NCBI GenBank assembly: GCA_045594385.1 | Contig: JAZNYM010000032.1 | Location: 8,339 to 72,338, forward strand | Source: Bacteroidaceae bacterium | GTDB taxonomy: Bacteria; Bacteroidota; Bacteroidia; Bacteroidales; Bacteroidaceae | Direction of reading: 5' to 3' | Length of the DNA stretch: 64,000 bases | Part shown: in pieces, positions 828 to 64,000 of the stretch | How positions within the stretch are numbered: the first letter of the stretch is position 1 | Layout of the letters: the number at the start of each line of letters is the position of its first letter | The notes under the pieces: generated by a model | Database searches by the model: none | What the model was told of the DNA's origin: nothing | Seen by the model: only the letters and a program-made list of their open reading frames with translations | Program-made: the position numbers and the translations under genes

Positions 828-1682
828 ATGAAAAGGATTTTGGTTACTGGTGCGAGCGGTTTCGTGGGAAGCCGCTTTGTGGAGAGGTGGAAGGGCGAGT
901 ACACCATACTTGCCCCCGGGCATGGGGAAATGGACATCACGGACGTGGTCTCGGTGGAGCGGTATTGCATGGAGAAAGTGCCCGATGTGGTGGTGCATCT
1001 GGCGGCGATATCGAACACGTGGTATTGCGAACAGCATCCCGAGGAGAGTTACCGCGTGAATGTGGAGGGGGCATGCAACGTGGCACTGGCTTCGGCAAGG
1101 TGTGGGGCGAAACTGGTGTTCTTCTCCAGCGACCAGGTGTATAACGGGAACAGGGAGAGCGGTCTGCTGACCGAGGACATTGCCGTTGCTCCGGAGAACG
1201 TGTACGGCAGGCATAAACTGGAGGCAGAGGGGCGTGTGCTTGGCACCTGCCCGGAGGCGGTGGCATTGCGTGCCACGTGGATGTACGACATGGAGAGGGA
1301 GGGTATGCCTACGCATGCTAACTTTGTGCTGAACATTGCCCATGCCATCAAGGAGGGAGCACAACTGCGGTTTCCCGTACGTGAGTACAGGGGAATAACG
1401 TGGGTGAAGGAGATTGTAGAACTGTTGCCACATGCCTTTGACCTACCCGGAGGCGTATACAACTTCGGTGCGGAGAACCTGCTGAACACCTACGAGACGG
1501 CATGCCGGTATTGCGAGATGCTGACTGGGGAAAAGAACAATGCTATAATCCTGCCCGACCATGAGCGATACCCCGAGCATGTGCGCAACATTTCCATCAG
1601 TATGGGTAAGGCAAACTGGGCTTCGGGTGGGACAATACGGTTCCATAACACCTTGGAGGGACTGAGGGAGGCGGAACGGTGA
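828..1682 (+). CDS. NAD(P)-dependent sugar-nucleotide reductase/epimerase, RmlD (dTDP-4-dehydrorhamnose reductase)-like SDR
   Basis: N-terminal Rossmann motif VTGASGFVGS, YGRHK (YxxxK) catalytic motif, 284 aa. The TGA stop lies in the first GGTGAGC-type repeat unit. Confidence 0.75.
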   Translation: MKRILVTGASGFVGSRFVERWKGEYTILAPGHGEMDITDVVSVERYCMEKVPDVVVHLAAISNTWYCEQHPEESYRVNVEGACNVALASARCGAKLVFFSSDQVYNGNRESGLLTEDIAVAPENVYGRHKLEAEGRVLGTCPEAVALRATWMYDMEREGMPTHANFVLNIAHAIKEGAQLRFPVREYRGITWVKEIVELLPHAFDLPGGVYNFGAENLLNTYETACRYCEMLTGEKNNAIILPDHERYPEHVRNISISMGKANWASGGTIRFHNTLEGLREAER

Positions 1683-2045
1683 GCGGTGAACGGTGAACGG
1701 TTAGCGATTTAGTTTTCCGTTTTCCGTTTCCAGTTTTCACCTTTTATCATACCCCCTCCGCTTCGCTCGTCCCCCTGTCTCAGGGGGACAGTTTAGAGCG
1801 GATGGGAGGTGAGAGGTGAGCGGATGAGAGAGTCAGAGTAATCAGAGTAATCAGAATATTCCGAGTAATCGGAAAAACCGCTCACCACTCATCCGTTAAA
1901 AACATCACTACTATACCTTATTATATATCCCCCCAATAATACTATTGCAAAACCAATCACCTACGAATACATTATACTCCCCTCCCTTGTGGAGGGGTTG
2001 GGGGGAGGGTCCTCCTCTCTCACCGCTCACCGCTCACCGCTCATA
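1671..2045. repeat. Composite mosaic element L: GGTGARC x3, TTTTCCG x3, hairpin GTCCCCCTGtctCAGGGGGAC, GGTGAGN run, GAGTAATCN 9-mers, AT-rich core, G/C-run hairpin, GCTCACC x3
   Basis: Read directly from the sequence. It is colinear with the reverse complement of 3185-3420. Submodules recur at 5749-5882, 63106-63170 and 63855-63995. Confidence 0.85.
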
Positions 2046-5739: not shown

Positions 5740-5748
5740 AATTCAAAC

Positions 5749-5882
5749 GGTGAGGGGTGAGGGGATGAGCGGTGAGCGGGATTTCCGATTACTCGGAATA
5801 TTCTGATTATTCGGATTACTCGGATTACTCCGACTCTCTCATCCGCCCACCCGCTCACTTTACAGTTTTCCGTTTTAATCCC
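5749..5882. repeat. Composite mosaic element: GGTGAGG/GGTGAGC run, inverted GAGTAATCN 9-mer module, TTTTCCG module
   Basis: 5765-5845 is the reverse complement of the module at about 1815-1890 (ggatgagagagtc[a/g]gagtaatc...cagaatattccgagtaatcggaaa). tttacagttttccgtttt matches 1707-1735. Confidence 0.8.
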
Positions 5883-30264: not shown

Positions 30265-30265
30265 A

Positions 30266-37771: not shown

Positions 37772-37860
37772 ATCTTGCTTTTTTTTATCTTTTCACTCCC
37801 CTTCTCGTAAATAGCGGACCGGCTTCGGCTAATATGCAATACATTGTCACTAACCGTTCG

Positions 37861-39270: not shown

Positions 39271-39304
39271 AAGAGGAAATTCTTTTTTTGGACGAATAAA
39301 AAGA

Positions 39305-39715
39305 AGCAGTGGCCCTGTAAGCCGGGTTCTGTGCACGGATATTTCTGCATCAAGCCTCCATATCCGCCGCCTGTCATTTATCCACTACCGGCGTCACCGC
39401 CAGTCTCTATCGTTCTACCCTCCGGCTCGGACGGACAACCCTCCCACTCCCGCCATTACAGCAGGAGCACCGCCGGTATACGCGAACTTTCAACATCCGG
39501 AGTGCACAGCACGCATGTCGCCACACGCCTGGTGGGCTCTTACTCCACCTTCTCACCCTTGCCTGCAATATATACAGGCGGTTGTTTTCTTCTGCACTGA
39601 CCAACCATCACTGGCTCCTACCCGTTAGGTAGCGGATTGTCCTGTGTTGCCCGGACTTTCCTCTCGTCTCCTCCCAAAAGGAGAAAACCAGCGACAGGCC
39701 GGACCACTGTTTCTT
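39305..39715 (-). ncRNA. rnpB: RNase P RNA (bacterial type A)
   Basis: On the minus strand, GAGAGGAAAGTCCGGGCAAC (P4 5' strand) and ACAGAACCCGGCTTA (P4 3' strand) are present. P1 pairs CAGTGGTCC (39701-39709) with GGGCCACTG (39307-39315). Ends are approximate. Confidence 0.9.
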
Positions 39716-49185: not shown

Positions 49186-49350
49186 CCCAAATCGGGCATC
49201 AGACTGCTACGCAATAATGAAACCATCTTTTTGTCACCCGTTTCGTCGTTTCGCGGTTACAATGGAACCCTATTGCGCCCTCAAAGCGGCAAAACATCTG
49301 TCCAAAAATAGAGGCTATTATCATCATAACGCTAATGAGCGATTTGGGTA
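49184..49350 (+). mobile_element. 167-bp MITE-like element with 11-bp terminal inverted repeats (AACCCAAATCG ... CGATTTGGGTa)
   Basis: A second copy of identical length, about 85 percent identical by eye and in inverted orientation, lies at 62726-62892. The element starts inside the TAA stop of the GT2 gene. Confidence 0.7.
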
Positions 49351-49381
49351 AAAAAAACAAAGGCTTTAAGGTCCTTTTGGG

Positions 49382-52522: not shown

Positions 52523-52589
52523 GTTACCTTTTTACCTTATATATTATTATAGGTTCATCGCCTACAGTTTCTCTTTTATTTATTGTTGC

Positions 52590-52623
52590 AGACACCTCTT
52601 CGCCAATTGGCGGAGAGGTGTCT
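52590..52623 (-). terminator. Hairpin downstream of nifJ (possible terminator with a weak U-tract)
   Basis: agacacctcttcgcc aatt ggcggagaggtgtct forms a 15-bp stem with one mismatch, 34 nt after the nifJ stop. Confidence 0.45.
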
Positions 52624-52656
52624 TATCATGGATTGTATGCTTGTATGCATCTAAGT

Positions 52657-55600
52657 TTACAGAGACCAGTCCTCCTGGGTCTTGCGGATGTATGACTTGT
52701 AGCGGCGCTGTGCTGCAGCCTTACAAGCATCATACAGTTCCTGTGCCTCCTGTGGAGCGGCCTTCTTCAGAGAGAGGAAGCGAACCTCGCCCTCGAGGAA
52801 GTCCTGGAACTTGTCCCATTCGGGCTCCTTGCTGTCCAGCTGGAAGGGGTTCTTGCCCTCTTCGCCCAGAGCGGGATTGTAGCGCCACAAGTGCCAGTAA
52901 CCGCACTCTACAGCCTTGGCCTCCTCGGCCTGGCTCTTGCCCATGCCGCCCTTGGCCTTCAGGCCATGGTTGATACAGGGAGCGTAAGCGATTACCAGTG
53001 AAGGACCGTTCCATGCCTCAGCCTCGCGGAATGCCTTCAGACACTGTGCCTGGTCGGCACCCATAGCCACCTGTGCCACATAAACGTTGCCGTATGTTGC
53101 CTGCATCAGACCCAGATCCTTCTTGCCCACACGCTTGCCGTTGGCAGCAAACTGTGCAATGGCACCGATGGGAGTAGCCTTTGATGCCTGGCCGCCGGTA
53201 TTTGAGTAAACCTCGGTGTCGATGACGAAGATGTTCACGTCCTCGCCTGAACCGATAACGTGGTCCAGACCACCGTAACCGATATCGTAGGAAGCACCGT
53301 CACCACCGATAATCCACTGGCTGCGCTTAACCAGATAGTGATCCAGTTCCTTCAACTGCTGGCAAACGGGGCAACCAGCCTCGGCACCTGCGGCAATCAT
53401 GGGCTTCAGCACTGCTGCCGCTGCCTTAGAGGCACCGGTGTCGTTCTGACCCTCTAACCACTGCTGTGCAGCAGCCTTGAATTCGGCAGGAGTCTCCTCC
53501 GAAGCAATAGCCTCATTAAGCAGGACGTTGATGCGTGCCTTCATCTTCTTGTTGGCCAATACCATACCCAGACCGAACTCGCAGAAGTCCTCGAACAGGG
53601 AGTTTGCCCATGCAGGACCCTGACCTTCGGCATTCTTGGTGTAGGGGGTAGAGGGGATAGAACCGGAGTAGATTGAAGAGCAACCGGTAGCGTTGGCCAC
53701 CATCTGACGGTCACCGAACAACTGGCTGATGAGCTTCACGTAGGGAGTCTCACCACAGCCGGCACATGCACCGCTGAACTCGAACAGAGGCTGTGCAAAC
53801 TGGCTGTTCTTGGGGCTCTGCTTGATGTCCACCAGATGCTGCTTGCTTGTCACCTTCTGCATGAAGTACTTCCAGTCGGCGGCATTCTTCTGAGCCTCCT
53901 CGGAAGAGTCGTCGTAGGCCTTCATTGTCAGAGCCACGCCCTTCTTGGGGTTGCCGGGACAAACGTCGGCACAGTTGCCGCAACCCAGACAGTCCTTGTC
54001 ATCCACAGCGATGACGAAGTGCATGCCCTTCATAGTGGCGGGAGCCTTCATCTCTATGCTCTGGCCCTCGTAGCCTGCCAGTTCCTCGTCGGTCATTACG
54101 ATAGGACGGATAGCGGCGTGAGGACAAACGAATGCACACTTGTTACACTGGATACAGTTCTCGCTGTTCCATACGGGCACAAAGCCGGCAACGCCACGCT
54201 TCTCGTATGCGGCAGTACCCTGCTCCCATGCACCGTCCTCTATGCCCTTGTATGCACTCACGGGCAACAGGTCGCCGTTCTGTGCGTTGATGGGACGTAC
54301 CAAGCTGGTGATGTATTCGGGCTCGTCATACTTGGGAGCCTCGTCGGCAGGCAGGTTCATCCAGGCGGGATCCACGGGCAGAACCTTGTACTCGCCACCG
54401 CGGTCCACGGCAGCATAGTTCATGTTCACCACGTCCTCACCCTTCTTGCCGTAAGACTTCACGATAGCCTTCTTCATCTGCTCTACTGCCAGTTCCACGG
54501 GGATTACCTCGGTAATACGGAAGAATGCAGACTGCAGAATGGTGTTGGTGCGGTTGCCCAGACCAATCTCCTGAGCGATCTTGGTAGCGTTGATATAGTA
54601 AACGGTAATGTTCTTCTCGGCGAAGTACTTCTTCAGGTTGTTGGGGATGAAGTTCACCAGTTCCTCGCCCTCGAAGATGGTGTTCAGCAGGAACTGACCG
54701 CCGGGCTGCAGACCGCGGATAACATCATACATGCGCAGATAAGCCTGAACGTGACATGCCACGAAGTTGGGAGTCTTGATCTGGTATGTGCTGCGGATGG
54801 GAGTGTCGCCGAAGCGCAGGTGAGAACAGGTAAAGCCGCCGCTCTTCTTTGAGTCGTATGAGAAGTAAGCCTGACAGTACTTGTCGGTATTGTCACCGAT
54901 AATCTTCACAGAGTTCTTGTTAGCGCCCACTGTACCGTCGGCACCCAGACCGAAGAACTTGGCCTCGAAGATACCCTTGCCACCCAGCGCCATCTCTTCC
55001 TTCTTGGGCAGAGAGGTGAAGGTAAGGTCGTCCACGATGCCCACGGTGAAGTGGTCCTTGGGCTGAGCCATCTCCAGATTCTCGAATACACCCAGAATCA
55101 TGGTGGGGGTAACGTCGGCACTGCCCAGACCATAGCGGCCGCCCACGATGAGGGGAGCATTCTCCACACCATAGAAGGCATCCTTCACGTCCAGCAACAG
55201 AGGTTCGCCGTTGCTGCCGGGTTCCTTGGTGCGGTCCAGTACGGCAATGCGCTTGCAGCTTGCAGGCACGGCCTTCAGCAGGTGCTTCACAGAGAAGGGA
55301 CGATACAGGTGTACGCTCACCATACCGTACTTCTTGCCGTTGGCGTTAGCATGGTCAATAGCCTCGCGTGCAGCCTCGGTGGCAGAACCCATCAGGATGA
55401 TGATTTCCTCTGCATCCTCTGCGCCATAATATGTAAACAGGTCATACTTGCGGCCTGTGCGCTCGCTGATTGCGGCCATGTACTTCTCCACGATGGCAGG
55501 AACGGCATCGTAGTAGCGGTTGCAGCTCTCGCGGTGAGCGAAGAAGGTCTCGGGGTTCTCTGCCATACCCTTTGCCATGGGGCGTTCGGGTGTCAGTGCA

Positions 55601-56223
55601 CGTGAACGGAACTCGCTCACTGCCTTCATGTCCACCAGGTCGCGAACGTCGTCGTCCTCTATCAGTTCCACCTTCTGGTATTCGTGAGAGGTGCGGAAAC
55701 CGTCGAAGAAGTTGATGAAGGGCACGCGGGCCTCTATGGCAGCCAGATGTGCTACGGCACTCAGGTCCATAACCTCCTGCACGCTACCCTCTGCCAGCAT
55801 GGCGAAACCGGTCTGGCGGCAAGCCATCACGTCGCTGTGGTCACCGAAGATACACAGAGAGTGTGTGGCCACAGTACGTGCGCTCACGTGGAACACGCTG
55901 GGCAGCAACTCGCCGGCTATCTTGTACATATTAGGAATCATCAGCAGCAGACCCTGGCTGGCGGTGAAGGTAGATGTCAGAGCACCTGCCTGCAGAGAGC
56001 CATGCACGGCACCGGCGGCGCCGGCCTCAGACTGCATTTCCTGAACCAGGACTGTATCTCCGAACAGATTCTTTCTGCCCTGTGCAGCCCACTCATCCAC
56101 ATGCTCCGCCATAGGAGACGAAGGAGTGATGGGATAGATGGCGGCAACCTCACTGAACATGTAAGCCACATGTCCGGCACAGGTATTACCGTCCCATGTC
56201 ACAAATTTCTTTTCTTTTGCCAT
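52657..56223 (-). CDS. nifJ: Pyruvate:ferredoxin (flavodoxin) oxidoreductase
   Basis: 1188 aa. Two ferredoxin-type 4Fe-4S motifs (CIQCNKCAFVCPH and CLGCGNCADVCP), a TPP-binding GDG region (IIGGDGASYDIGYGGLD), and colinearity with PFOR throughout. Confidence 0.95.
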   Translation of the reverse strand: MAKEKKFVTWDGNTCAGHVAYMFSEVAAIYPITPSSPMAEHVDEWAAQGRKNLFGDTVLVQEMQSEAGAAGAVHGSLQAGALTSTFTASQGLLLMIPNMYKIAGELLPSVFHVSARTVATHSLCIFGDHSDVMACRQTGFAMLAEGSVQEVMDLSAVAHLAAIEARVPFINFFDGFRTSHEYQKVELIEDDDVRDLVDMKAVSEFRSRALTPERPMAKGMAENPETFFAHRESCNRYYDAVPAIVEKYMAAISERTGRKYDLFTYYGAEDAEEIIILMGSATEAAREAIDHANANGKKYGMVSVHLYRPFSVKHLLKAVPASCKRIAVLDRTKEPGSNGEPLLLDVKDAFYGVENAPLIVGGRYGLGSADVTPTMILGVFENLEMAQPKDHFTVGIVDDLTFTSLPKKEEMALGGKGIFEAKFFGLGADGTVGANKNSVKIIGDNTDKYCQAYFSYDSKKSGGFTCSHLRFGDTPIRSTYQIKTPNFVACHVQAYLRMYDVIRGLQPGGQFLLNTIFEGEELVNFIPNNLKKYFAEKNITVYYINATKIAQEIGLGNRTNTILQSAFFRITEVIPVELAVEQMKKAIVKSYGKKGEDVVNMNYAAVDRGGEYKVLPVDPAWMNLPADEAPKYDEPEYITSLVRPINAQNGDLLPVSAYKGIEDGAWEQGTAAYEKRGVAGFVPVWNSENCIQCNKCAFVCPHAAIRPIVMTDEELAGYEGQSIEMKAPATMKGMHFVIAVDDKDCLGCGNCADVCPGNPKKGVALTMKAYDDSSEEAQKNAADWKYFMQKVTSKQHLVDIKQSPKNSQFAQPLFEFSGACAGCGETPYVKLISQLFGDRQMVANATGCSSIYSGSIPSTPYTKNAEGQGPAWANSLFEDFCEFGLGMVLANKKMKARINVLLNEAIASEETPAEFKAAAQQWLEGQNDTGASKAAAAVLKPMIAAGAEAGCPVCQQLKELDHYLVKRSQWIIGGDGASYDIGYGGLDHVIGSGEDVNIFVIDTEVYSNTGGQASKATPIGAIAQFAANGKRVGKKDLGLMQATYGNVYVAQVAMGADQAQCLKAFREAEAWNGPSLVIAYAPCINHGLKAKGGMGKSQAEEAKAVECGYWHLWRYNPALGEEGKNPFQLDSKEPEWDKFQDFLEGEVRFLSLKKAAPQEAQELYDACKAAAQRRYKSYIRKTQEDWSL

Positions 56224-56296
56224 TGTTATTGTTGTTTTATCGTCAGGCCCCAGGCCTGATAACGGTTAATAATTGTTTTCTTATCTTTTTGGCCAT

Positions 56297-56390
56297 CTAG
56301 AACACCTAGAAAGACTAGAAGTTCTAGAAAGTCTAGGATGTCTAGGAAGACTAGGATGTCTAGGAAGACTAGGAAGTCTAGTTCCTCTAG
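56297..56390. repeat. CTAG array: 11 CTAG cores on a strict 9-bp register
   Basis: CTAG starts at 56297 plus 9n for n = 0..10, counted by hand. The last CTAG contains the TAG stop of the AAA ATPase gene. Confidence 0.9.
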
Positions 56391-57568
56391 TAGATCAGCC
56401 CGAACATCCACAAGGGAATCTCCTGTCCCTCTCCTTCCTTTTTGTCGGTACTCACGTATATCACGTCTGTCGACCTCCTTTTGGGAATCTCATCCAGTAT
56501 CCGGAACCTATACTTGTCATCCAGTATGAATGTACAGGACCTGTCACCCACACTCACCTTGTGTTTCGGACTTGTGGCACTCTGGAAGAATGTCTCTATC
56601 ATGTCCTGCCTGTTCACTTGTCCCGGTGTCATCACATGCATCAGATTGGTATTGTGCATCATCAGACGCACAGGCTTCTTTGGGAATCCCTCACCTCTGC
56701 GATATAGCATATTCAGCAATCGCGCGTCACCCAGAAATTTGATATAGTTCATTATCGTGGTCCGCGAAGTCTGGACCTCCAAAGCCAGCTGGCTCACATT
56801 GGGGGTTCCTGTACCACCCGTAGCCAACAGGAAAAACAGTTTCTTTATTCTGTTGAGGTTCTTCTGCTCCATCTGGTATATGAGCAGCACATCCACCTCT
56901 ATCATCATGTTCATCGTCTTCAGCAGGTTCTCGCTGAAATTCCTTTTGTTCAGGAAAAACGGATAATAGCCATGATGCAGATATGCCTCGAAGTAATCCA
57001 GCGGATTGCAGCGTGCACAAATCTCCTTGGCAATACGCTCATGGCGGTTCTGCAGTTCTCTCAGCGTGACGGGTCTGATATCTGTACCTGCCTTTATATT
57101 CAGGAACTCACGGAAAGAAAAACCTCTCAGGCTATAACTCCGGCATATTCCGTTCAGTTCGGGATTTTCGTCCTTCAGCCTCATCACTGTGCTGCCTGTG
57201 AATACTATGCGGAGCATGGGATATTTCTCGTAGCACTCGTGCAGCACATGGCTCCAGTTGGACACCTTGAATATCTGATCTATCAGCAACACCTGTCCTC
57301 CGGCCCTATAGAAGTCTCCAGCAAACTTCAGCAAACTGTAGGTCTGGAAAAAGAAGTTGTTCATATTGATGTACAAACATCTCTTGTCGTTGGCCGTATA
57401 GTTTTCTTTTGCATATTGTAGCAGGAAAGTTGTCTTTCCCACTCCACGGCTGCCCTTTATTCCAATCAGGCGGTCACGCCAATTTATCTCGTCCATCAAC
57501 GCACGATGCACGGGCTCTCCCAGATGTTCCAGCAAATACCGATGTGTTCTGAATAGGGTCTCCAACAT
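56387..57568 (-). CDS. AAA-family ATPase with a DUF4143-type C-terminal domain
   Basis: Walker A GSRGVGKTT and Walker B LLIDQI. 393 aa. This architecture is common in Bacteroidota (AAA_14 plus DUF4143, from memory). Confidence 0.75.
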   Translation of the reverse strand: MLETLFRTHRYLLEHLGEPVHRALMDEINWRDRLIGIKGSRGVGKTTFLLQYAKENYTANDKRCLYINMNNFFFQTYSLLKFAGDFYRAGGQVLLIDQIFKVSNWSHVLHECYEKYPMLRIVFTGSTVMRLKDENPELNGICRSYSLRGFSFREFLNIKAGTDIRPVTLRELQNRHERIAKEICARCNPLDYFEAYLHHGYYPFFLNKRNFSENLLKTMNMMIEVDVLLIYQMEQKNLNRIKKLFFLLATGGTGTPNVSQLALEVQTSRTTIMNYIKFLGDARLLNMLYRRGEGFPKKPVRLMMHNTNLMHVMTPGQVNRQDMIETFFQSATSPKHKVSVGDRSCTFILDDKYRFRILDEIPKRRSTDVIYVSTDKKEGEGQEIPLWMFGLIY

Positions 57569-57671
57569 ACTTGCAAGTTGTATTTACATGTAACCGACAC
57601 ATATTTTACGCAGACAAAGATACACTTTTTTTGTTTAATTGCAAAGTAGAAGTGACAAAAAAGATAAAAAC

Positions 57672-57905
57672 GTGAAGAGGTGAGAGGTGAGAGGTGAGCG
57701 GTGAGAGGTGAGCGGTGAGCGGTGAGCGGTGAGAGGATGAGAGGATGAGAGGTGAGAGGTGAGCGGTGAGAGGATGAGAGGATGAGAGGTGAGCGGTGAG
57801 CGGTGAGCGGTGAGCGGATGAGCGGATGAGCGGATGAGCGGAAACCTGAAACTTGAAACCTGAAACTTGAAACCTGAAACCTTCAACCAGTAACCTTCAC
57901 CGTTC
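57672..57905. repeat. Composite 7-bp arrays: (GGTGAGN/GGATGAG) about 24 units, then (CTGAAAC/TTGAAAC) about 6 units
   Basis: Read directly from the sequence. It is the reverse complement in type of 60820-61114. The mtgA stop (57897-57899) lies in the last degenerate unit, cggtgaagg. Confidence 0.9.
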
Positions 57906-58592
57906 AAATTCCACTTTCCCGATATTCCTCATCTGGCGCATTATCTGTGTCTGTCTGCGCAGCATATATGGCGAAGGGTCCTTTGAACTGAACTTCAACG
58001 GGTTCGGCAGCGTGGCGGCTATCAGGGCACAGTTGGCCCGTGTCAGTCGGTCGGCTCCGCGTCCGAAGTTTTGCCATGCCACGGCATCGGCACCATATAT
58101 GCCGTCTCCCATCTCTATGCTGTTCAGGTACACCTCCATTATGCGGTGTTTGTCCCACATCAGTTCTATCAGTATGGTAAAGTATGCTTCCAGTCCTTTT
58201 CTGAACCATCCTCCTCCGGGCCACAGGAACACGTTCTTTGCCGTCTGCTGCGATATTGTGCTGGCGCCTCGTCTGCGCTTTCCACTCTGTCTCTCGTCCC
58301 AGGCCTTGGATATGGCGTCAAAGTCGAAGCCGTTATGCGTCATGAACCTTTGGTCTTCGCTTGCCACCACGGCAAGAGCCAGGTCGGGTGTCATGCCCTT
58401 GTCCATCTCCACCCAATGGTGCTTCAGGCGTATTTTCTCGCCCCTGCCCATCTGCTGGCAGCAACGTATCAACATCAGTGGCGTCACCTGCACCGGCAAC
58501 CACCTGTATGCCAGCACCGCCAGTATGGAACTGAGGAAAAACAGTCCCACTATCCAACGGAGTATATTGCGCAGTCGTGTAAATATCTTCAT
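57897..58592 (-). CDS. mtgA: Monofunctional peptidoglycan glycosyltransferase
   Basis: [26 protein letters not shown] and [27 protein letters not shown] motifs of the GT51 family. 231 aa. Confidence 0.92.
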
Positions 58593-58613
58593 AAAGCAAT
58601 CTTTTAGAAAAGC

Positions 58614-58707
58614 CTAGAATATCTAGAATATCTAGAGAGACTAGAAAGACTAGAAGGACTAGAAGGACTAGATTGTCTAGATTGTCTAGATTGTCTAGAA
58701 AACCTAG
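58614..58707. repeat. CTAG array: 11 CTAG cores on a strict 9-bp register (twin of 56297-56390)
   Basis: CTAG starts at 58614 plus 9n for n = 0..10, counted by hand. It fills the gap between the GH20 stop and the mtgA start. Confidence 0.9.
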
Positions 58708-58721
58708 CCCCCCAGTCCCTC

Positions 58722-60815
58722 CTACTCCCTTTCCTTATCAGGAGAGTAGATCAGTCCTTCCACGGCATTCCTGCCCTCCAGGTCCGTGAGCACGAAGGTA
58801 AACATCCACTTGTCCAGTCGGTATCCTGCATTCACGTAGGGCAGTTTCAGGAACACCTTGTTCCAACCCTTGTTCAGTGTCACTGCTATGGGTTTGCGGG
58901 CAGGGAAGTTCTCGTTCTTCAGTTCCACCTCCTTGTTGCTTATGGCCACACCGGCATTCTCATAGTCGGGAGCCTCTATTTCCTCACCGTTTACCCATAT
59001 TCTGGAGCCATACAGGTCCCAGTTGCCTGCCGTGGGGGCCGGGTCCTGCTCCGAGCGGCTGTAGTTCTGGAACTCTATCACGGCACCCACCTCCTGCTTC
59101 TTCTTGCTGTAGACGTATGTCCAGGCGTATGCAGTGTTGTTGAACGAGGGCGACTCGTAGTAGGCCTTTATGATGCTGTGCCCCCATGTGTGTCTCAGGT
59201 ATATGCCGGCACCCGTGGCCACTCCTGTGCCGTAGGTTTTGCCCTCGTGTGTGAAAGTGTTGGGGATGTTGCACATCGCGCATGTTGTGGCATGCTTCTC
59301 CGGAGCGAACTCTGCGGCGTTGTTGCCGCCGTTGGGGAAGGCATCCGTTATGCGCCAGCGTACGTTGGTCTGTTTCACGTATGGTATGGGCTCGTCCTTC
59401 AGCGCATGTGCCTTATGGAACAGGAAGCGGCGCTCCCAGTCGCGGAACTCATCGTACTCCTCGCCGCTGTTGGGCAGCATCACGCCGCCACCGCCGTTCG
59501 TGCCACCGTTGTTGCAGTTGTCTATGTAGCGTTTGCCTCCGCCCACCCAGGCGCGTTCTGCCGTGGCAATCACGTTGGCCCACACGTTGTTCTGCGCCAT
59601 GATATCCTCCTCGGTGGAGAGTTTGCGGTCGTTCCAGCAACCGGAGACGGCACCTGCCACCTCGGCATCGCCCTTCTCCTTATAATATATATTGCTCTTG
59701 AAGATGCCCACCAGGTCGGCAAACACGTCGAAGTGGTTGGTGTAGTTGTATCGGCTGTCTATGTTGGCCTTGCCCCCGGCAAAGTAACCGCGTGTACCCC
59801 ACATCTGTGTCAGCGAGGCGTTCAGGCTCTTCTGTCCTATGCCGTTGATGGGGTTCCATATCTCTGCCTTCTTGCCCTTGCTCTCCACATAGGCAATCAT
59901 TTCGTTCAGGTAGGCGGCAGTCGTGCTCACCTCGTCACCGCCAATGTGTATGTAGGGTGCATCGGCAAAGACCTCTGCCACCTCGTCCAGCACCTTCTTC
60001 AGCACAGCTTTTCCTTCGGCGCTCTGCATGTCAAAGCCCATGGCACGCCTGAAGGCCGCGCTGTGTCCCGGCATGTCTATCTCGGGGATAACCGTTACGC
60101 CGTGCTTCTTGGCAGCCTCCATCACCTTGCGGCAGTCCTCCTGTGTGTAGTACTGGCCGGCGAAGCGAGTCATGGACTCGGCAGAGGTAAGTTGCGGATA
60201 AGCCTTCACCTCGAAGCGCCATGCCTGGTTCTCTGTCATGTGCCAATGGAAAGTGTTCACCTTGAAGCGCGAGAACAATTCTATCTGCCTTACCAGTTCC
60301 CCGGCGCTGATGAACGAGCGGCCCACATCGTGCATGTATCCGCGCAACTTGAATGCCGGCCAGTCCGTCATCTTCACGGCCTCCAGGGCGGGCTTGCCCT
60401 TCCATCCCTCTGCCATCTGCACCAGTGTCTGTGTTGCGCGTATCACACCGGTGGGCGTTACCGCTGTGATGTTTATGGCCTCCGGTGTCACCTCCAGGGT
60501 GTAGGCCTCGTTCTCGTATCCGTACAGTTCATAGTCGTATGCGCCTTCTATGCTCTTCACCATGCTCACGTTCACAGCCTTGCCGCCACTTGGCACCAGT
60601 TTGCAACCGTTGCTGGTCAGGAACTCCTCCAGCAGGGCACATGCTTTTGCCCCGTTGGCATAGTTTATGCTTACTTTGCCCTTCAGTTTGAAGGCCGCCA
60701 CGTTTTCCGTGGCAGTAATCTGTTGTGGACGTGGCAGTATGTGCTGCACCTTTGCCTGTAATGCCGATGGCACCAGCGACATCATCATTGCCGTTACAAG
60801 TAGAGTCTTTTTCAT
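58722..60815 (-). CDS. Beta-N-acetylhexosaminidase (GH20)
   Basis: Signal peptide present. GH20 catalytic region YIHIGGDEV, HWHMTENQAWR and IPEIDMPGHS. 697 aa. Confidence 0.92.
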   Translation of the reverse strand: MKKTLLVTAMMMSLVPSALQAKVQHILPRPQQITATENVAAFKLKGKVSINYANGAKACALLEEFLTSNGCKLVPSGGKAVNVSMVKSIEGAYDYELYGYENEAYTLEVTPEAINITAVTPTGVIRATQTLVQMAEGWKGKPALEAVKMTDWPAFKLRGYMHDVGRSFISAGELVRQIELFSRFKVNTFHWHMTENQAWRFEVKAYPQLTSAESMTRFAGQYYTQEDCRKVMEAAKKHGVTVIPEIDMPGHSAAFRRAMGFDMQSAEGKAVLKKVLDEVAEVFADAPYIHIGGDEVSTTAAYLNEMIAYVESKGKKAEIWNPINGIGQKSLNASLTQMWGTRGYFAGGKANIDSRYNYTNHFDVFADLVGIFKSNIYYKEKGDAEVAGAVSGCWNDRKLSTEEDIMAQNNVWANVIATAERAWVGGGKRYIDNCNNGGTNGGGGVMLPNSGEEYDEFRDWERRFLFHKAHALKDEPIPYVKQTNVRWRITDAFPNGGNNAAEFAPEKHATTCAMCNIPNTFTHEGKTYGTGVATGAGIYLRHTWGHSIIKAYYESPSFNNTAYAWTYVYSKKKQEVGAVIEFQNYSRSEQDPAPTAGNWDLYGSRIWVNGEEIEAPDYENAGVAISNKEVELKNENFPARKPIAVTLNKGWNKVFLKLPYVNAGYRLDKWMFTFVLTDLEGRNAVEGLIYSPDKERE

Positions 60816-60819
60816 ATGA

Positions 60820-61114
60820 GGTTAAAGTTTCAAGTTTAAGGTTTCAAGTTTCAAGGTTTCAGGTTTCAAGTTTCAAGTTTCTGGTTTAAAGTTTTAGGTT
60901 TCCGCTCATCCGTTCACCGCTCACCGCTCATCCGCTCACCGCTCACCGCTCACCGCTCACCGGTTTCAAGTTTCAAGTTTCTGGTTTAAAGTTTAAGGTT
61001 TCCGCTCATCCGCTCACCACTCATCCGCTCACCGCTCATCCGCTCATCCGCTCATCCGCTCATCCGCTCACCGTTTATCGCTCACCGCTCACCGCTCACC
61101 GTTTATCGCTCACC
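60820..61114. repeat. Composite 7-bp arrays in duplicate: (GTTTCAA) then (GCTCACC/GCTCATC), twice
   Basis: GTTTCAA-type at 60824-60900 and 60962-61000. GCTCACC-type at 60901-60961 and 61001-61114. It covers the last 6 codons and the stop of the S24 gene. Confidence 0.9.
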
Positions 61115-61929
61115 GCCTGTGCAATTTTTACGTACTCCTCGAAGCGTATTCCTGTCACGGGGGCATTGTTTATATTCCATTGGTTTACAGGCCTGCAAAA
61201 GCTGCCAACAGCCATGCGCCTCATGGCATCCACCGTCGGTAGGCTGGGATGCTCCGGAACAGCTCTGGCAACCATGTCCACAAAGGTGGCGTACATCTCC
61301 GACTCACACAGTCCCATGTCCACCAATGCCCTGTACACGGCATACCAATGACGTGAATTGCGTACCATGGGAGCCGCCTTGCATATCAGCGGACCGGGAT
61401 CGTCCATGGGTTTGTCTTCTGGCGTTTCAGCAGCCTTAAGCACCCGCATTATACTGGCATGGCTATAGCGTGGAGCATCCTTTGTCACTTTCACCACCTT
61501 TCCCACTATCCTCACGTCCATGTCTTCCGTCAGCCTGATTGGTTTGTAGGCTTCGTTGGCCGGCACCAGCCAGCATTGTCCGTTCTCATCGCGGAAGAAA
61601 GCCTTCAGCGTAAACTCTCCGTCTATGGCGGCCACCACTATGTCACCGTCATCTGCACAGGGACCGGATTTTATCTGGAGCTTGTCGCCGGGCATGATGC
61701 CTATGTCCGTCATCGAGTTGCCTGTCACGTCCACGCTGAAAGTGATTCCCAGATTCAGGAAACTCTTGGACAAGAACAAACATTCATCCCTTGGAATATC
61801 TCCGCACACGGTGGGAGTGCCGGCCCTCACGGCCTGGTTCATGTCTGGAACGGGTATATTGCAGAGTTCGGGGTTAATCACATCGCCCTGCATCTCTCCC
61901 AGTATTTCCTTCAGTTCTTCGTCTGTCAT
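61096..61929 (-). CDS. UmuD/LexA-type S24 self-cleaving peptidase domain fused to an unrecognised C-terminal domain
   Basis: A RAG/TP candidate Ala-Gly cleavage site, a GNSM Ser nucleophile, a Lys in FTLKAF, and GDIVVAAIDGEFTLK. The start is set to MTDEEL (61929) because upstream codons are repeat-derived. Confidence 0.7.
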   Translation of the reverse strand: MTDEELKEILGEMQGDVINPELCNIPVPDMNQAVRAGTPTVCGDIPRDECLFLSKSFLNLGITFSVDVTGNSMTDIGIMPGDKLQIKSGPCADDGDIVVAAIDGEFTLKAFFRDENGQCWLVPANEAYKPIRLTEDMDVRIVGKVVKVTKDAPRYSHASIMRVLKAAETPEDKPMDDPGPLICKAAPMVRNSRHWYAVYRALVDMGLCESEMYATFVDMVARAVPEHPSLPTVDAMRRMAVGSFCRPVNQWNINNAPVTGIRFEEYVKIAQAVSDKR

Positions 61930-61933
61930 GGTA

Positions 61934-62024
61934 ATCGGGTTTCGGGTTTGAGGTTTCAAGTTTCAAGTTTAAGGTTTTAGGTTTCAGGTTTCAAGTTTCA
62001 GGCTTCAGGTTTCAGGTTTCAGGT
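61934..62024. repeat. GTTTCAN 7-bp array filling the S24/four-helix-bundle intergenic gap
   Basis: tcgggtttcgggtttgaggtttcaagtttcaagtttaaggttttaggtttcaggtttcaagtttcaggcttcaggtttcaggtttcagg. It supplies the TGA stop of the four-helix-bundle gene. Confidence 0.9.
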
Positions 62025-62406
62025 ATTTGGAGCCGGTAATGGAGCTCTTCTTTAAGCTTTTTATAAAAGCTGCAATTGCGCTGCTCAGTTCCAGACATAC
62101 GTTATACAATCTCTTTGCATCCGTGTTATTGAGGAAATTTGTATCTGATGCTCTGATAATTTGCGAGCGGACTTCCCCACACGAACCTTTTGCCACATAA
62201 AGAAACTGTATAAACTCCTTGTTCCCGTCTCGCTCAAACCCTTCTGCGATATTATCCATGACACTTCCTGCAGCTGCACGAATCTGTTGTACGAACCGCG
62301 TGTCCGTTTTCCATGGTTGGGTTTCGGTATGAAGATAAACTTCCTGACACAACTCCCTTGCCATCTGCCAAATCCGTAATTCCTCAAATCTTTCAACCAC
62401 TGCCAT
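62005..62406 (-). CDS. Four-helix-bundle protein (23S rRNA intervening-sequence protein / Avd-like family)
   Basis: F.ELRIWQ.AREL...VY......P.......QIR.AA.SV..NIAEGF.R....EF..FL..A.GS..EV..Q is the family signature (TIGR02436-type, from memory). 133 aa. Confidence 0.85.
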   Translation of the reverse strand: MAVVERFEELRIWQMARELCQEVYLHTETQPWKTDTRFVQQIRAAAGSVMDNIAEGFERDGNKEFIQFLYVAKGSCGEVRSQIIRASDTNFLNNTDAKRLYNVCLELSSAIAAFIKSLKKSSITGSKYLKPET

Positions 62407-62424
62407 AGTTTTGTTATTAGATTA

Positions 62425-62632
62425 GTTTAAGGTTTCTGGTTTCAAGTTTCAAGTTTCTGGTTTCAAGTTTCTGGTTTCAAGTTTCTGGTATGCCTCTTGC
62501 TCTGTTATCATGAGATGCCCTTACGCTCCTTGGCTTCTTGAAACTTGAAACTTGAAACATGAAACCTATAATTTGTACTTCCTTGACTTCTTGAAACATG
62601 AAACTTGAAACTTGAAACTTGAAACATGAAAC
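62425..62632. repeat. Inverted 7-bp arrays: left arm (GTTTCAA/GTTTCTG), right arm (TTGAAAC/ATGAAAC) duplicated
   Basis: Left arm 62425-62489. Right arms 62536-62566 and 62589-62632, each preceded by a cttccttgrcttc-like motif. Confidence 0.85.
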
Positions 62633-62725
62633 TAGAGCCTCCACGCTCCTTTTCTCCCCGCAAATTTACTTTTTTTATTCCACATCACCAAAATTTTGGG
62701 ACATCTTGTAGTAAAACGGCAATTC

Positions 62726-62892
62726 AACCCAAATCGGTCATTAGCGTTATGATGATAATAGCGTTTGTTTTTGAACAGATGTTTTGCCACTTTGAGGGCG
62801 CAATGGGGTTCCATTGTAACCGAGAAGTGACGAAACAGATGACAAAAAGAAGGTTTCATTAGCGCATAACAGTCTAATGAACGATTTGGGTT
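62726..62892 (-). mobile_element. Second copy of the 167-bp MITE-like element (perfect 11-bp TIRs AACCCAAATCG / CGATTTGGGTT)
   Basis: Inverted relative to the copy at 49184-49350 and of the same length. Confidence 0.7.
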
Positions 62893-62946
62893 AAACATTG
62901 TTACTACAGAATCAAAAGACCTCCCCCATGGCACTGTCATTTTATC

Positions 62947-63040
62947 ATCGGTAATGGTAAATTTTGCCATCGGTGACGGTAAATCTCACCATCGGTAATC
63001 GTTCGCCGAACGATCGGTAATGATTCGCCTTCATCATCGT
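62947..63040. repeat. 22-bp tandem repeat x4 (CATCGGTAATnGTTCGCCGAA family)
   Basis: Units start at 62947, 62969, 62991 and 63013. 62993-63045 is nearly colinear with 37905-37950. Confidence 0.8.
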
Positions 63041-63060
63041 GAGGACAAGAAGCACCCCTC

Positions 63061-63625
63061 AATAGGAAGGTTTAAAGTTTAAAGTTTCAGGTTTCAGGTT
63101 TCTCGCTACTTTGTCCCTCTGAGACAGGGGGACGAGGAACAAAGTTCCGGAGGGGGTATGATAAGTACTGCTGTCAGGCTTCATCGTTCATCGTTCTTTT
63201 ACAGACCCCTCAGCCCTTCGGGCACCTCGCCCTAACTTAGGGGAGGAAAGGGGGAGGGGGGGGCAAGTTTCAGGTTTAAGGTATCCGCTCAGCACTTCCC
63301 GGTTTAAGGTTTCAGGTTTCAAGTTTCAAGTTTAAGGTATCCGCTCAGCGCTTCCCGGTTTAAGGTTTCAGGTTTCAAGTTTCAAGTTTAAGGTATCCGC
63401 TCAGCGCTTCCAAGTTTAAGGTTTCAAGTTCGCTAAGGCCTTAAACCCGAAACATGAAACATGAAACTCCAAACCTGAAACATGAAACCTGAAACATGAA
63501 ACCTGAAACTCCAAACCCGAAACATGAAACTTGAAACATGAAACTTGAAACTCCAAACTCTAAACCCGAAACTTGAAACCTGAAACCTGAAACTTTAAAC
63601 CTGAAACTTTAAACTCCAAACCCGA
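63061..63625. repeat. Large composite: GTTTMAR arrays, hairpin module, G-rich tract, 56-bp tandem repeat x about 2.7, then an inverted (nTGAAAC) arm
   Basis: gtccctctgagacagggggac occurs near 63106-63130. gtatccgctcagc recurs at 63281, 63337 and 63393 (56-bp spacing). The symmetry centre AAGGCCTT is at 63435-63442. The GAAAC-type arm runs 63443-63625. Confidence 0.85.
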
Positions 63626-63660
63626 AACAAAACCGCCGAGGTTTTTCGAACCCCGGCGGC
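63625..63660 (-). terminator. Rho-independent terminator of the small-peptide gene
   Basis: On the minus strand, gccgccgggg ttcgaaaaa cctcggcgg is followed by ttttgtttcgggttt. Confidence 0.65.
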
Positions 63661-63668
63661 TTGATATA

Positions 63669-63848
63669 TTACCATTCGCTGTCCCAGATGCCGGGAGCAG
63701 AAGGACCATTGTCCTCACGGCCAAGTTGGACATCAGCGACTGAAGTGTCAACTGTCTCTTCATTGATGCCCAAACTTGCTGCCAGCATGTTTACGGCACT
63801 TACCTTTATTGTCTCCACTGAGGGAGTGATATATGTCTTCTTGTTCAT
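63669..63848 (-). CDS. Small protein (59 aa) missed by the 60-aa ORF cutoff: MNKKTYITPSVETIKVSAVNMLAASLGINEETVDTSVADVQLGREDNGPSAPGIWDSEW
   Basis: Hand-translated from the ATG at 63848 to the TAA at 63669-63671. It has its own terminator. The N-terminal pattern MxKKxYxxPxxExxxV...MLAAS resembles small Bacteroidales peptides I have seen annotated as hypothetical. Confidence 0.5.
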   Translation of the reverse strand: MNKKTYITPSVETIKVSAVNMLAASLGINEETVDTSVADVQLGREDNGPSAPGIWDSEW

Positions 63849-63854
63849 AATAAC

Positions 63855-63995
63855 GGACCCCCTTTGCCTTTGGCGTCTCCCCCTCTATGGGGAGAAGTTT
63901 CCGGCTGCCTTGGTGGGGGTATGGCTTTTATTGTTTTACTTCTTTTATCATAGCCCTCCGGAAGCGCTCCCCATAGAGGGGGCGAACAAGGTCCT
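63855..63995. repeat. Inverted pair of the ATCATACCCCCTCCG/CCCC..GGGG hairpin module upstream of the small-peptide gene
   Basis: tctccccctctatggggaga and gctccccatagagggggcg hairpins are present. 63935-63990 is homologous to 1741-1795. 63855-63925 is its degenerate reverse complement. Confidence 0.7.
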
Positions 63996-64000
63996 CGGAG

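Follow-up and report, generated by a model that had tools for sequence, protein, structure and literature searches.

The window analysed here, a 64,000-nt stretch of a gut Bacteroidales contig that is itself a metagenome-assembled genome (MAG) contig, carries genes whose identities as RmlD, DUF5074, AAA_14, Transgly, Peptidase_S24 (S24) and 23S_rRNA_IVP (four-helix bundle, 4HB) are confirmed by Pfam. Gaps filled by tandem arrays, which were called with Tandem Repeats Finder (TRF), are concentrated at the ends of the window; arrays account for 54% of non-coding sequence in the last 8 kb versus 3% in the middle 49 kb, where the gaps are ordinary. The left end contains the following features:

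1674..1738, plus strand: GGTGAAC x4, overlapping the RmlD stop (1680-1682), then GTTTTCC x4 (TRF and sequence).
1794..1898, plus strand: 105-nt composite hairpin consisting of a GGTGAGC-unit arm, palindromic 9-mers (TCAGAGTAA / CGAGTAATC) and a GCTCACC-unit arm; further copies in L176-L179.
2019..2043, minus strand: GGTGAGC x3.6, overlapping the DUF5074 stop (2034-2036) (TRF).
5746..5862, minus strand: second copy of the composite hairpin, adjoining the start codon of a 71-aa ORF; kept in some same-species strains and replaced by an AAACGGA-heptamer module in others.

The right end is more densely occupied:

56306..56390, unstranded: 9-mer array CTAGGAAGW x ~9, purine-rich on the plus strand, whose last CTAG (56387-56390) supplies the AAA_14 stop TAG (TRF and sequence).
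57615..57622, minus strand: canonical Bacteroidetes -7 promoter box TATCTTTG serving AAA_14, located where the gap is free of repeats (motif scan); the 100 nt around it match L023 exactly and are conserved between species.
57676..57841, plus strand: ~23-unit GGTGAGC/GGTGAGA/GGATGAG array (higher-order period 37 nt), located between the AAA promoter and the mtgA stop (TRF, dimer census); its sense (minus) strand is C-rich and stop-free, and the minus-strand RNA is predicted to be unstructured (MFE -0.5 kcal/mol over 125 nt).
57841..57896, minus strand: 6-8 GGTTTCA/AGTTTCA heptamers (minus-strand reading) directly 3' of the mtgA stop (TRF).
58609..58701, unstranded: 9-mer array CTAGNNNNN x ~10, between GH20 and mtgA (TRF).
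60825..61116, unstranded: composite [GTTTCA]n[CCGCTCA]n block (TRF), duplicated as a 100-nt higher-order repeat (60862-61062), that takes up the S24-GH20 gap and includes the S24 stop (61096-61098), so that repeat units encode the C-terminus AVSDKR*.
61938..62024, plus strand: GGTTTCA array x12 that fills the 4HB-S24 gap and supplies the 4HB gene with its stop and final six codons (TRF).
62005..62406, minus strand: 4HB (23S_rRNA_IVP) gene, between two same-orientation heptamer arrays (Pfam).
62424..62633, minus strand: leader of the 4HB-S24 unit, with GTTTCAAG arrays (62537-62633) and inverted CTTGAAAC arrays (62424-62489).
62661..62668, minus strand: canonical -7 promoter box TAAATTTG upstream of the leader arrays (motif scan); the equivalent box TATATTTG is conserved in L171-L175.
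62723..62895, unstranded: 173-bp MITE-like element with 22-nt terminal inverted repeats (repeat search and BLAST); a second copy lies at 49181-49353, and the orthologous site of the first is empty in L024.
62939..62999, unstranded: 22-mer array, CATCGGTAATGGTAAATTTTGC-type, related to 22-mers at 37851-37920 (TRF and sequence).
63068..63102, plus strand: GGTTTAA/GGTTTCA heptamers x5, flanking the 160-nt element (TRF).
63103..63262, minus strand: 160-nt hairpin-rich dispersed element inside GTTTCA arrays (fold z -2.6), with 95% identical copies in L013 (uncultured Paraprevotella sp.).
63264..63430, plus strand: 56-mer x3 higher-order repeat, each of four GTTTCA-type units plus GGTATCCGCTCAGCGCTTCCC (TRF); single copy in L024.
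63439..63615, minus strand: GTTTCA-type heptamers x24, inverted, with a 42-nt higher-order period (TRF).
63624..63662, minus strand: hairpin and T-run resembling an intrinsic terminator, directly 3' of the small gene 63669-63848 (sequence reading); L024 has this hairpin too.

The arrays are real and far above chance. The last 8 kb contain 1337 array bases compared with 0 in first-order Markov simulations, while GGTGAGC x2 and GTTTCAR x2 have 32 and 62 matches, respectively, against chance expectations of 0.2 and 0.09. They are also almost limited to non-coding DNA, with 1672 of 1855 array bases outside coding sequence. The units comprise dispersed 7-nt families (GGTGAGC/GGATGAG, GGTTTCA/AGTTTCA/GGTTTAA and GTTTTCC) and 9-10-nt families (CTAGGAAGN and GATTACTCG), with higher-order periods of 37, 42, 56 and 100 nt detected by TRF; hairpin and MITE-type insertion elements form a second group beside them. 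The modules reported by the first-pass annotation were recovered by TRF where they had been placed: CTAGN5 9-mers at 56306-56381 and 58609-58701, GGTGAGC/GGATGAG at 57676-57841 and 60902-61116, GTTTCAA/GTTTCAG/GTTTAAG at 57841-57896, 60825-60902, 60963-61002 and 61938-62024 (with further sites at 62424-62489, 62537-62633, 63068-63102 and 63439-63615), the 22-mer at 62939-62999 and the three 56-mers at 63264-63430. The accompanying statement that the seven gaps consist almost wholly of such modules was, however, too strong, as array cover ranges from 0 to 97% (56224-56386, 47%; 57569-57896, 67%; 58593-58721, 72%; 60816-61095, 97%; 61930-62004, 89%; 62407-63668, 49%; 63849-64000, 0%). The last of these holds no tandem arrays, only inverted-repeat hairpins, and the non-array remainder of the seven gaps comprises promoter/leader sequence conserved across species, the 173-bp MITE, the 160-nt hairpin element and the terminator. 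Similarly, of the modules said to recur at the left end the GGTGAGC family does so, but GTTTCA units are absent and the 9-mers there are GATTACTCG, not CTAG. Beyond the window, heptamer arrays with diverse, unrelated units are widespread: a metagenome scan returned at least 120 contigs with (GGTGAGC)n, spanning 41-74% GC and mostly carrying other heptamer families alongside; in viral contigs (GGTGAGC)3 was no commoner than scrambled controls (12 versus 9, 11 and 2).

Comparison of strains shows satellite-like behaviour, the arrays gaining and losing whole units and building higher-order repeats as bacterial micro- and minisatellites do. In independent same-species assemblies they differ by whole units even though the flanking genes share 96-99% identity. 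Thus the 4HB-S24 gap measures 31, 38, 52, 66 or 80 nt (31+7k nt) in eight assemblies and the AAA-PFOR gap 109 or 118 nt, in direct support of the earlier suggestion of a slippage-prone spacer, although the comparison contigs are mostly short-read assemblies and absolute unit counts may be imprecise. L024-L026 differ in unit number and order, with only 7 mismatches in the 834 nt of the S24 coding sequence (99.2% identical), and number and order also differ among strains in the S24-GH20 gap, where the 160-nt element, among GAAAC heptamers, has one or two copies (L169, L170) and none in the other six assemblies. Three left-end gaps show two to four different structures among strains with flanking genes 96-97% identical, the leader module of the 4HB-S24 unit has 1-3 copies in other strains, and the 4HB gene is absent from L024, in which its flanking arrays are joined. 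The AAA-PFOR gap contains a TAG-core array with a 9-10-nt period in all five lineages examined, with differences in unit sequence and orientation, and same-species strains carry a 10-mer CCTAGGAAGA array of opposite orientation in the GH20-mtgA gap. CTAG-type arrays at two orthologous gaps are inverted in sister lineages, with a period of 9 versus 10. A few unit families are common to many loci and to sister species. It could be argued that such arrays are an artefact of assembly, given the MAG origin of the window and the fact that contigs assembled from short reads of close strains break off within arrays, so that exact unit counts may be unreliable. Nevertheless, over 15 independent assemblies of varied sample origin, bearing record names in different assembler styles, read through the same arrays in the same gaps and differ cleanly by whole units, making an artefact extremely unlikely.

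The relationship between arrays and stop codons is less regular than was initially proposed. The TGA-bearing strand had been described as the coding strand at all five gene ends that run into heptamers; the rule holds for four, because the array 3' of mtgA reads GGTTTCA/CCGCTCA, the stop-free strand, on the coding strand. The mtgA stop (57897-57899) does lie in a repeat unit, but this is one isolated GAACGGTGA unit and not the array that follows. The spurious ORF 57635..57907, attributed to the stop-free strand, was confirmed. Relative to the uniformly minus-strand genes of the window, both orientations of each family are seen. In a census of 293 heptamer arrays, in which ORF calls were crude and many loci were orthologous duplicates, the stop-bearing strand was the sense strand in 42 versus 3 cases where the ORF ran into the array, in 25 versus 11 where the array lay within 10 nt of the ORF, and in 9 versus 21 where it began 11-60 nt downstream. 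The TGA-strand rule holds mainly where a reading frame enters or abuts an array. It is highly improbable that the arrays are positioned to present stops in all three frames to ribosomes coming off a gene. A 7-nt TGA-bearing unit does, by simple arithmetic, close all frames within 21 nt, and four of the five gene ends and the census bias at 10 nt or less fit; however, mtgA is followed by the stop-free strand, the bias is reversed at 11-60 nt, the stop-less family GTTTTCC/AAACGGA also occupies 3' ends, arrays fill 5' leaders equally, relatives lack arrays at the same gene ends, and simple tolerance already predicts the bias (PMC4679880). The translation/transcription insulator of the first-pass annotation is likewise not supported, in view of mixed family orientations, CTAG-type arrays flipped in sister lineages and the census counts. 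The stop-codon pattern is best explained as a by-product rather than as a designed insulator.

Other roles can be envisaged at the level of RNA or DNA. Inverted-pair hairpins might, as proposed for REPs, end transcription or protect mRNA ends, with unidirectional C-rich arrays yielding unstructured, G-poor RNA on which Rho would load at operon ends. The inverted arrays fold far better than shuffles (leader GTTTCAAG/CTTGAAAC pairing, window 62407-62660, minus strand, -77.6 kcal/mol, z -7.3; composite hairpins 1794..1898, -39.6 kcal/mol, z -6.0, and 5746..5862, -51 kcal/mol, z -6.1), the composite hairpins lie at the ends of genes, including one between convergent genes, and the array giving C-rich RNA follows mtgA, beyond which no gene precedes the next canonical promoter box. 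After S24, RmlD and DUF5074, however, the sense strand of the GGTGAGC family is the G-rich one, the mtgA-AAA array is degenerate or absent in other species (absent from L005 and L008), orthologous gaps show flipped orientation and hairpin arm lengths are free to vary between strains. In addition, arrays after the small gene start only beyond its separate terminator-like hairpin and T-run, which suggests that termination there may have no need of them. We therefore regard an RNA-level role as unlikely, if worth keeping in view. Less likely again is that the arrays serve as portable homology, crossing over within them allowing strains to swap or lose genes and gap cassettes. The 4HB loss in L024 has both junctions within same-orientation CTGAAAC arrays, and nucleotide identity to same-species strains jumps at array-filled gaps (S24 0.58 to GH20 0.95+; GH20 1.0 to mtgA 0.77-0.93; AAA 0.70 to PFOR 0.97), but equally sharp gene-wise jumps occur in an array-free polysaccharide operon (Wza/Wzz/X418/GT2, 0.87/0.82/0.65/0.92), identity also switches across the tmRNA gap, S24 has an internal identity gradient, and such exchange would be a consequence that need not have been selected as a function. 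Palindromic TAG-core units every 9-10 bp, on one helix face upstream of promoters such as that of PFOR, might instead form protein-binding or bending platforms. The AAA-PFOR array persists in 5/5 lineages despite changes in unit sequence, either orientation is tolerated, as a double-stranded palindromic site would predict, and the arrays at 58609 and 56306 hold 22 of the window's 47 CTAG sites. The core (CTAG, CTATAG, CCTAGG or ATAG) and period (9 versus 10) nevertheless vary, unit number differs between strains, no candidate binding protein was identified and the heptamer families have no palindromic core, leaving this proposal improbable.

On balance we think it probable that the arrays are micro-/minisatellites of the short tandemly repeated repetitive (STRR)-like kind, that small mobile hairpins seeded them and that selection against damage to reading frames acts as a filter. 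They would belong to a lineage-wide repeatome with two layers, one of dispersed short head-to-tail units of 7 nt and 9-10 nt, the other of small insertion elements (the 105-nt composite hairpin, the 160-nt hairpin-rich element and the 173-bp MITE). Unit number would change through slipped-strand mispairing and unequal recombination, and units may have reached many loci by riding on, or being seeded by, mobile hairpin elements. Selection would only filter the sites at which arrays are permitted. When an array overruns a gene 3' end, only the orientation with stops in all frames would leave a near-normal protein, which may be why the TGA-strand pattern exists and why RmlD, DUF5074, mtgA and S24 have common ...CGG-TGA endings. 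Long hairpins would arise incidentally from inverted array pairs and may function as REP-type 3' or 5' structures do. The first-pass annotation had held that random orientation and free length variation would indicate neutral microsatellite growth, and the evidence leans towards microsatellite-like growth. It should be emphasized that three observations run against the satellite reading: upkeep of families across loci and sister species is not predicted by pure local slippage, arrays abutting stops (10 nt or less) remain biased, and every lineage examined has the TAG-core array in the AAA-PFOR gap, where palindromic cores (CTAG, CTATAG, CCTAGG) about one helical turn apart fit a protein-binding or DNA-bending role. 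The demonstrable consequence of the arrays is structural plasticity, in the form of variable spacers, gain or loss of genes and elements within arrays, and broken short-read assemblies.

The arrays had been likened to a BIME/REP mosaic, which is loosely apt in that a few dispersed families are reused, but their units are not palindromes and the arrays themselves are therefore not REPs. No paper containing the unit strings was found in the literature; the view that this is not a described kind of repeat was, however, too strong. Cyanobacteria, Beggiatoaceae, Xanthomonas and some Bacteroidetes have heptamer arrays between genes (PMC4679880, PMC4692102). For TAACTGA repeats, tolerance of stop codons has been argued in the same way (PMC4679880), GGGNATC repeats are reported to have a similar sense-strand bias, and intergenic heptamers vary in unit number (PMC4692102). 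The best reading is that the arrays belong to this known but functionally unexplained kind, a bacterial 'satellite DNA' that resembles the STRR-like repeats of cyanobacteria.

The minus strand carries every gene of the last 8 kb of the window, which has a G+C content of 46% and whose proteins find matches in uncultured "Bacteroidaceae bacterium" MAGs. The features on which the analysis draws are as follows:

52657-56223, minus strand, PFOR
56387-57568, minus strand, AAA_14 ATPase
57897-58592, minus strand, mtgA
58722-60815, minus strand, GH20
61096-61929, minus strand, S24-like gene
62005-62406, minus strand, four-helix-bundle (4HB) gene (23S_rRNA_IVP / Avd-like)
63669-63848, minus strand, 59-aa ORF
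7239-7645, minus strand, tmRNA with tag GEKNYALAA (Rfam)
39302-39710, minus strand, RNase P RNA class A (Rfam)

The two RNA genes fill two of the window's long array-free gaps. An exact-sequence look-up of the mtgA protein returned no identical record. The 59-aa ORF, compared with positions 53-232 of comparison locus L024, has conserved N and C termini (the latter ending ...EDNGPSAPGIWDSEW) and a middle that diverges between strains; in related strains it comes after a large protein of 757-1088 aa, for which a RicinB-lectin Pfam match, marked 'faint', was obtained in two loci.

The short-period arrays described in the first-pass annotation were recovered at the same places by Tandem Repeats Finder (TRF). 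They are real and represent dispersed repeat families. The period-7 arrays of the window comprise 4 to 24 units arranged head to tail; the units abut without spacers, and the combination of identical repeats and unique spacers typical of a CRISPR was not found in them. Two-unit matches number 32 for GGTGAGC, against 0.2 expected, and 62 for GTTTCAR, against 0.09 expected, while Markov simulations generated zero array bases. The arrays occupy 1855 bases of the window, 1672 of them non-coding, with overlap into coding sequence confined to the final few codons of genes and one 9-mer array. Their share of non-coding sequence is 54% for the last 8 kb, 17% for the first 7 kb and 3% for the 49 kb between them. 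The GGTGAGC family occurs at no fewer than 10 places in the window and the GTTTCA family at no fewer than 8, related loci also hold both, and TRF detected higher-order repeats of 37, 42, 56 and 100 nt within the arrays. Most arrays lie at gene 3' ends or between cistrons, and some are in the 4HB-S24 leader or stop 8-18 nt before start codons; the positions typical of phase-variation contingency repeats are the 5' coding region and the stretch between promoter elements of the regulated gene.

The proposal that the gaps of the last 8 kb consist almost wholly of such modules was too strong, as tandem array accounts for 47, 67, 72, 97, 89, 49 and 0% of the seven gaps. The remainder is promoter or leader sequence conserved across species, a 173-bp MITE-like element, a 160-nt hairpin-rich element and a terminator-like hairpin. 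Similarly, the same modules had been placed at the left end of the window, where the GGTGAGC family is indeed present but the GTTTCA family is absent. Searches against Rfam 15 at gathering score gave no match in the gaps, the only matches in the window being the tmRNA and RNase P RNA outside them; under a permissive search the long hairpins gave just far-sub-threshold matches to plant miRNA precursors.

Inverted ends, several copies and filled and empty sites, the features of a MITE, were all found in the 173-bp element. Its two copies (62723-62895 and 49181-49353) are 88% identical, with 22-nt terminal inverted repeats and the core AACCCAAATCG; L024 has an empty site at the orthologous position, and another comparison locus, L001, contains fragments of the element. 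The 160-nt element is present at 63103-63262 of the window, at 3629-3785 of a contig from an uncultured Paraprevotella sp. (L013; ~95% identity) and in comparison loci L169 (5378-5536) and L170 (5339-5492 and 5504-5653). All the full-length copies found lie among GTTTCA/GAAAC heptamers, and at the S24-GH20 gap there are 0, 1 or 2 copies by strain, inserted among GAAAC units. Shorter fragments are found elsewhere, for example at 1744-1790 of the window.

Repeats with other periods were also noted. Six copies of the 9-mer CCATAATGA at 30306-30359, which on the sense strand have an ATG in each unit and no stop, lie inside the 89-nt overlap of the large minus-strand ORFs 27904-30354 and 30266-32773. 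Tandem 22-nt units occur at 13912-13988, 37851-37920 and 62939-62999, the last two arrays sharing the palindromic core ATCGTTCGCCGAACGAT. Over the whole window several palindromic tetramers fall below maximal-order Markov expectation (GATC 0.34, AGCT 0.48, CTAG 0.52, TCGA 0.57), and two 90-bp arrays contain nearly half of the CTAG sites.

It had been claimed that six genes have their stop codons inside repeat units and that, at all five gene ends running into a 7-mer array, the TGA-bearing strand is the coding strand. Five of the six stops do lie in array units, that of the AAA gene being the TAG of an in-phase CTAG, and four of the five gene ends follow the orientation rule. The exception in both cases is mtgA, because its stop sits in an isolated GAACGGTGA unit, after which the coding strand of the array reads GGTTTCA/CCGCTCA. 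Four unrelated proteins (RmlD, DUF5074, mtgA and S24) have a ...CGG TGA ending that derives from one shared unit. The last six codons of the 4HB gene are made of heptamer units.

A crude census of 293 heptamer arrays in all retrieved loci, which recorded whether it is the sense strand that bears the stops, gave 42 arrays with stops on the sense strand against 3 stop-free where an ORF runs into the array. The corresponding figures were 25 against 11 for arrays within 10 nt of a stop codon, and 9 against 21 for those 11-60 nt downstream. In the clade, the rule is obeyed where an ORF ends inside an array, and in the window each family is present in both orientations among genes that share a single strand. 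The idea of a designed stop insulator does not fit this pattern, given the reversal at 11-60 nt and the occurrence of stop-less AAACGGA units at 3' ends as well. The pattern is consistent with a tolerance filter, in which an array in the stop-free orientation would append a repeat-encoded tail to the protein, an argument identical to that made by MacGregor for TAACTGA repeats (PMC4679880). Beyond reading-frame tolerance there is no orientation constraint on the arrays.

Folding distinguishes inverted from unidirectional arrangements. The inverted array pair in the 4HB-S24 leader (62407-62660, minus strand) folds with a z-score of -7.3, and both copies of the 105-nt composite hairpin (1794-1898 and 5746-5862), in which GGTGAGC units form the arms and palindromic 9-mers the core, have z of about -6. 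No such folding is seen in unidirectional arrays: for the C-rich strand that follows mtgA the MFE is -0.5 kcal/mol and z is +0.4. Inverted array pairs may have REP-like RNA roles, C-rich arrays may load Rho, and phased TAG-core arrays may bind protein. A role in making promoters was rejected, as the canonical TAnnTTTG box lies inside none of the arrays. In the gaps of the last 8 kb the sense strand has only two canonical Bacteroidetes -7 boxes, at 57622 and at 62668, each within unique sequence, which makes an intercistronic position probable for the arrays at 58593-58721, 60816-61095 and 61930-62004. Mimicry of Shine-Dalgarno or anti-Shine-Dalgarno sequences, prompted by GGTGA and TAAGGAGG-like units, was also set aside, the skew relative to start codons being only weak (28 v 18). 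A 9-mer family absent from the window, CTCCTTAMC, is found in the S24-GH20 and GH20-mtgA gaps of loci L163-L170; its sense strand repeats the 3' tail sequence of 16S rRNA (CCUCCUUA), and a perfect Shine-Dalgarno core is read on the complement.

Length polymorphism at orthologous gaps emerged from comparison with same-species assemblies, recognised by nucleotide identity (purH, TonB, DUF5074, RmlD, PFOR and GH20 are 96-97% identical to them). The 4HB-S24 gap measures 31, 38, 52, 66 or 80 nt (31+7k) in eight assemblies, differences that are purely of heptamer copy number. Unit number differs from that of the window in loci L024-L026 as well, whose S24 coding sequence shows 7 mismatches over 834 nt. 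Among the same-species assemblies the AAA-PFOR gap comes in two lengths, 109 and 118 nt, and the 4HB-S24 leader module is present in 1-3 copies; the S24-GH20 gap has the form [GGTGAGC]n[CTGAAAC]n[CTCCTTAMC]n, the GH20-mtgA gap contains 10-mers that run opposite to the 9-mers of the window, and each of three left-end gaps exists in 2-4 structurally distinct forms. L024 lacks the 4HB gene, its flanking arrays being joined; the gene is a presence/absence polymorphism inside the species. Between species, the AAA-PFOR gap carries a TAG-core array with a 9-10-nt period in every lineage compared, its unit (CTAGWCTTC, TATAGNNNN, CCTAGGAARN or TTCTATAGW) and orientation both varying. Among the other species whose orthologous mtgA-AAA-PFOR loci were compared, one has a degenerate version of the heptamer array that follows mtgA and two have none. 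The arrays are hypervariable by whole units and are hosts for insertions and deletions. We infer that slippage and unequal recombination enlarge them, that small mobile hairpins seed them and that they are mostly neutral.

An alternative that assigns the arrays a role starts from the handful of unit families common to all strains and sister species, and proposes that these provide portable homology, such that genes and gap cassettes would be swapped, deleted and inserted through crossovers within arrays. This is compatible with two observations: a pair of CTGAAAC arrays exactly brackets the loss or gain of the 4HB gene, and switches in identity between genes coincide with array-filled gaps. 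Over 51695-62406, five same-species strains (L171-L175) are 99% identical to the window in 4HB, 97% in PFOR and 96% in GH20, with the divergent genes at about 76-77% (S24), 78% (AAA_14), 87% (MscS) and 88% (mtgA); within S24 identity declines 5' to 3' from 0.93 to 0.58. Neither observation proves the proposal, because similar gene-wise switches occur at array-free gene boundaries in the polysaccharide operon, a result that led us to downgrade the arrays as recombination junctions and to regard portable homology as unlikely. In that polysaccharide locus (10401-13748, compared with L176-L179) an unannotated 418-aa ORF at 11562-12818 is 94% identical to two strains and 65% to two others, which looks like allelic replacement with no arrays nearby. 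The contrast between 4HB and S24 first suggested recent inter-species transfer of the 4HB gene. This was withdrawn because the 96-97% identity of the six reference genes places the comparison strains in the same species; judged by identity, S24, AAA and mtgA are the divergent alleles.

The recurrent junction GGTTTCCGCTCATCCGCTCA, scanned in 185,579 reference genomes, gave one relevant match, in the uncultured Paraprevotella sp.; other matches were chance occurrences in high-GC genomes, including a locus (L014) without arrays. A string search of the literature with these units returned nothing relevant. At least 120 metagenome contigs, with G+C contents of 41-74%, contain (GGTGAGC)3, and most of them carry other, unrelated heptamer arrays alongside. 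The notion that GGTGAGC is special across phyla was rejected, as it is not commoner in viral contigs (12) than scrambled heptamers of the same composition (9, 11 and 2). These two results indicate that heptamer arrays are widespread as a class; the particular families and how densely they occur are what is specific to this case.

The contigs of close strains assembled from short reads often end inside arrays, and many that bear these genes reach no more than 1-2 kb. The arrays account for the way in which short-read assemblies of the lineage break up at almost every gene boundary. They also affect annotation, through spurious ORFs and array-encoded C-termini, and could serve as high-resolution VNTR-like markers for strain typing. 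The many public metagenomes of this gut Bacteroidales lineage offer a natural population sample of heptamer-array dynamics, which were measured here at a handful of gaps. A recombination or protein-binding role, if true, would give these widespread repeats a function, and portable homology would amount to a repeat-based system of modular exchange.

Similar arrays were reportedly described by Mazel et al. in 1990 as the short tandemly repeated repetitive (STRR) heptanucleotides of cyanobacteria. Both systems have 7-nt head-to-tail units, with several families over many intergenic sites per genome and an unexplained function. The 7-nt units, non-coding location, dispersed families and unit-number polymorphism place the window's arrays in an STRR-like class. 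They are not cyanobacterial STRRs proper, which have other unit sequences and a heterocystous host; the units here are GGTGAGC, GGTTTCA and GTTTTCC, in an uncultured gut member of the Bacteroidaceae (Bacteroidales). Unlike STRRs, the heptamers are interspersed with 9-10-nt TAG-core arrays and also supply composite hairpins with their arms. The BIME/REP-like assignment of the first-pass annotation holds in part: similar to E. coli REP/BIME sequences, the repeats are extragenic, dispersed and mosaic, with hairpin-forming members at gene ends, but the REP unit is an imperfect palindrome of 20-40 nt, whereas the arrays are unstructured direct repeats that fold only in composite inverted arrangements.

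Parallels are also found among other bacterial heptamers. The TAACTGA direct repeats of Beggiatoaceae, cyanobacteria and a few Bacteroidetes (MacGregor 2015, PMC4679880) are likewise intergenic, with stops on one strand, strain indels in 7-nt steps and other heptamer families in the same gaps. The window, however, has no two-unit match to TAACTGA even with one mismatch allowed, and its arrays are not consistently placed just upstream of starts and are longer (up to 24 units, with higher-order repeats). The G-quadruplex-forming GGGNATC heptamers of Xanthomonas and Nostoc (Rehm et al. 2015, PMC4692102) are also G-rich and variable in unit number, and are concentrated in gaps that separate ORFs of the same orientation, frequently on the sense strand and no more than 50 bp from a stop codon; in contrast, the units here have GG runs only, and no four-unit preference was seen. 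The BrickBuilt MITE of Porphyromonas gingivalis, which belongs to the same order, has an internal minisatellite (PMC4596501); in common with the window it shows an intergenic tandem array inside a small non-autonomous element with inverted ends, and unit number varies by copy. Its unit is 23 nt, with a defined leader and tail, whereas the composite hairpin combines 7-nt arms with a 9-nt core, and for most arrays of the window no element ends can be recognised; the window's 22-nt units are similar in length to the BrickBuilt minisatellite unit. Comparable intergenic heptamer arrays have been described without an established function (PMC4679880, PMC4692102, PMC6749651), and the arrays of the window belong to this known, functionally unexplained kind of bacterial repeat, represented here by a new set of families.
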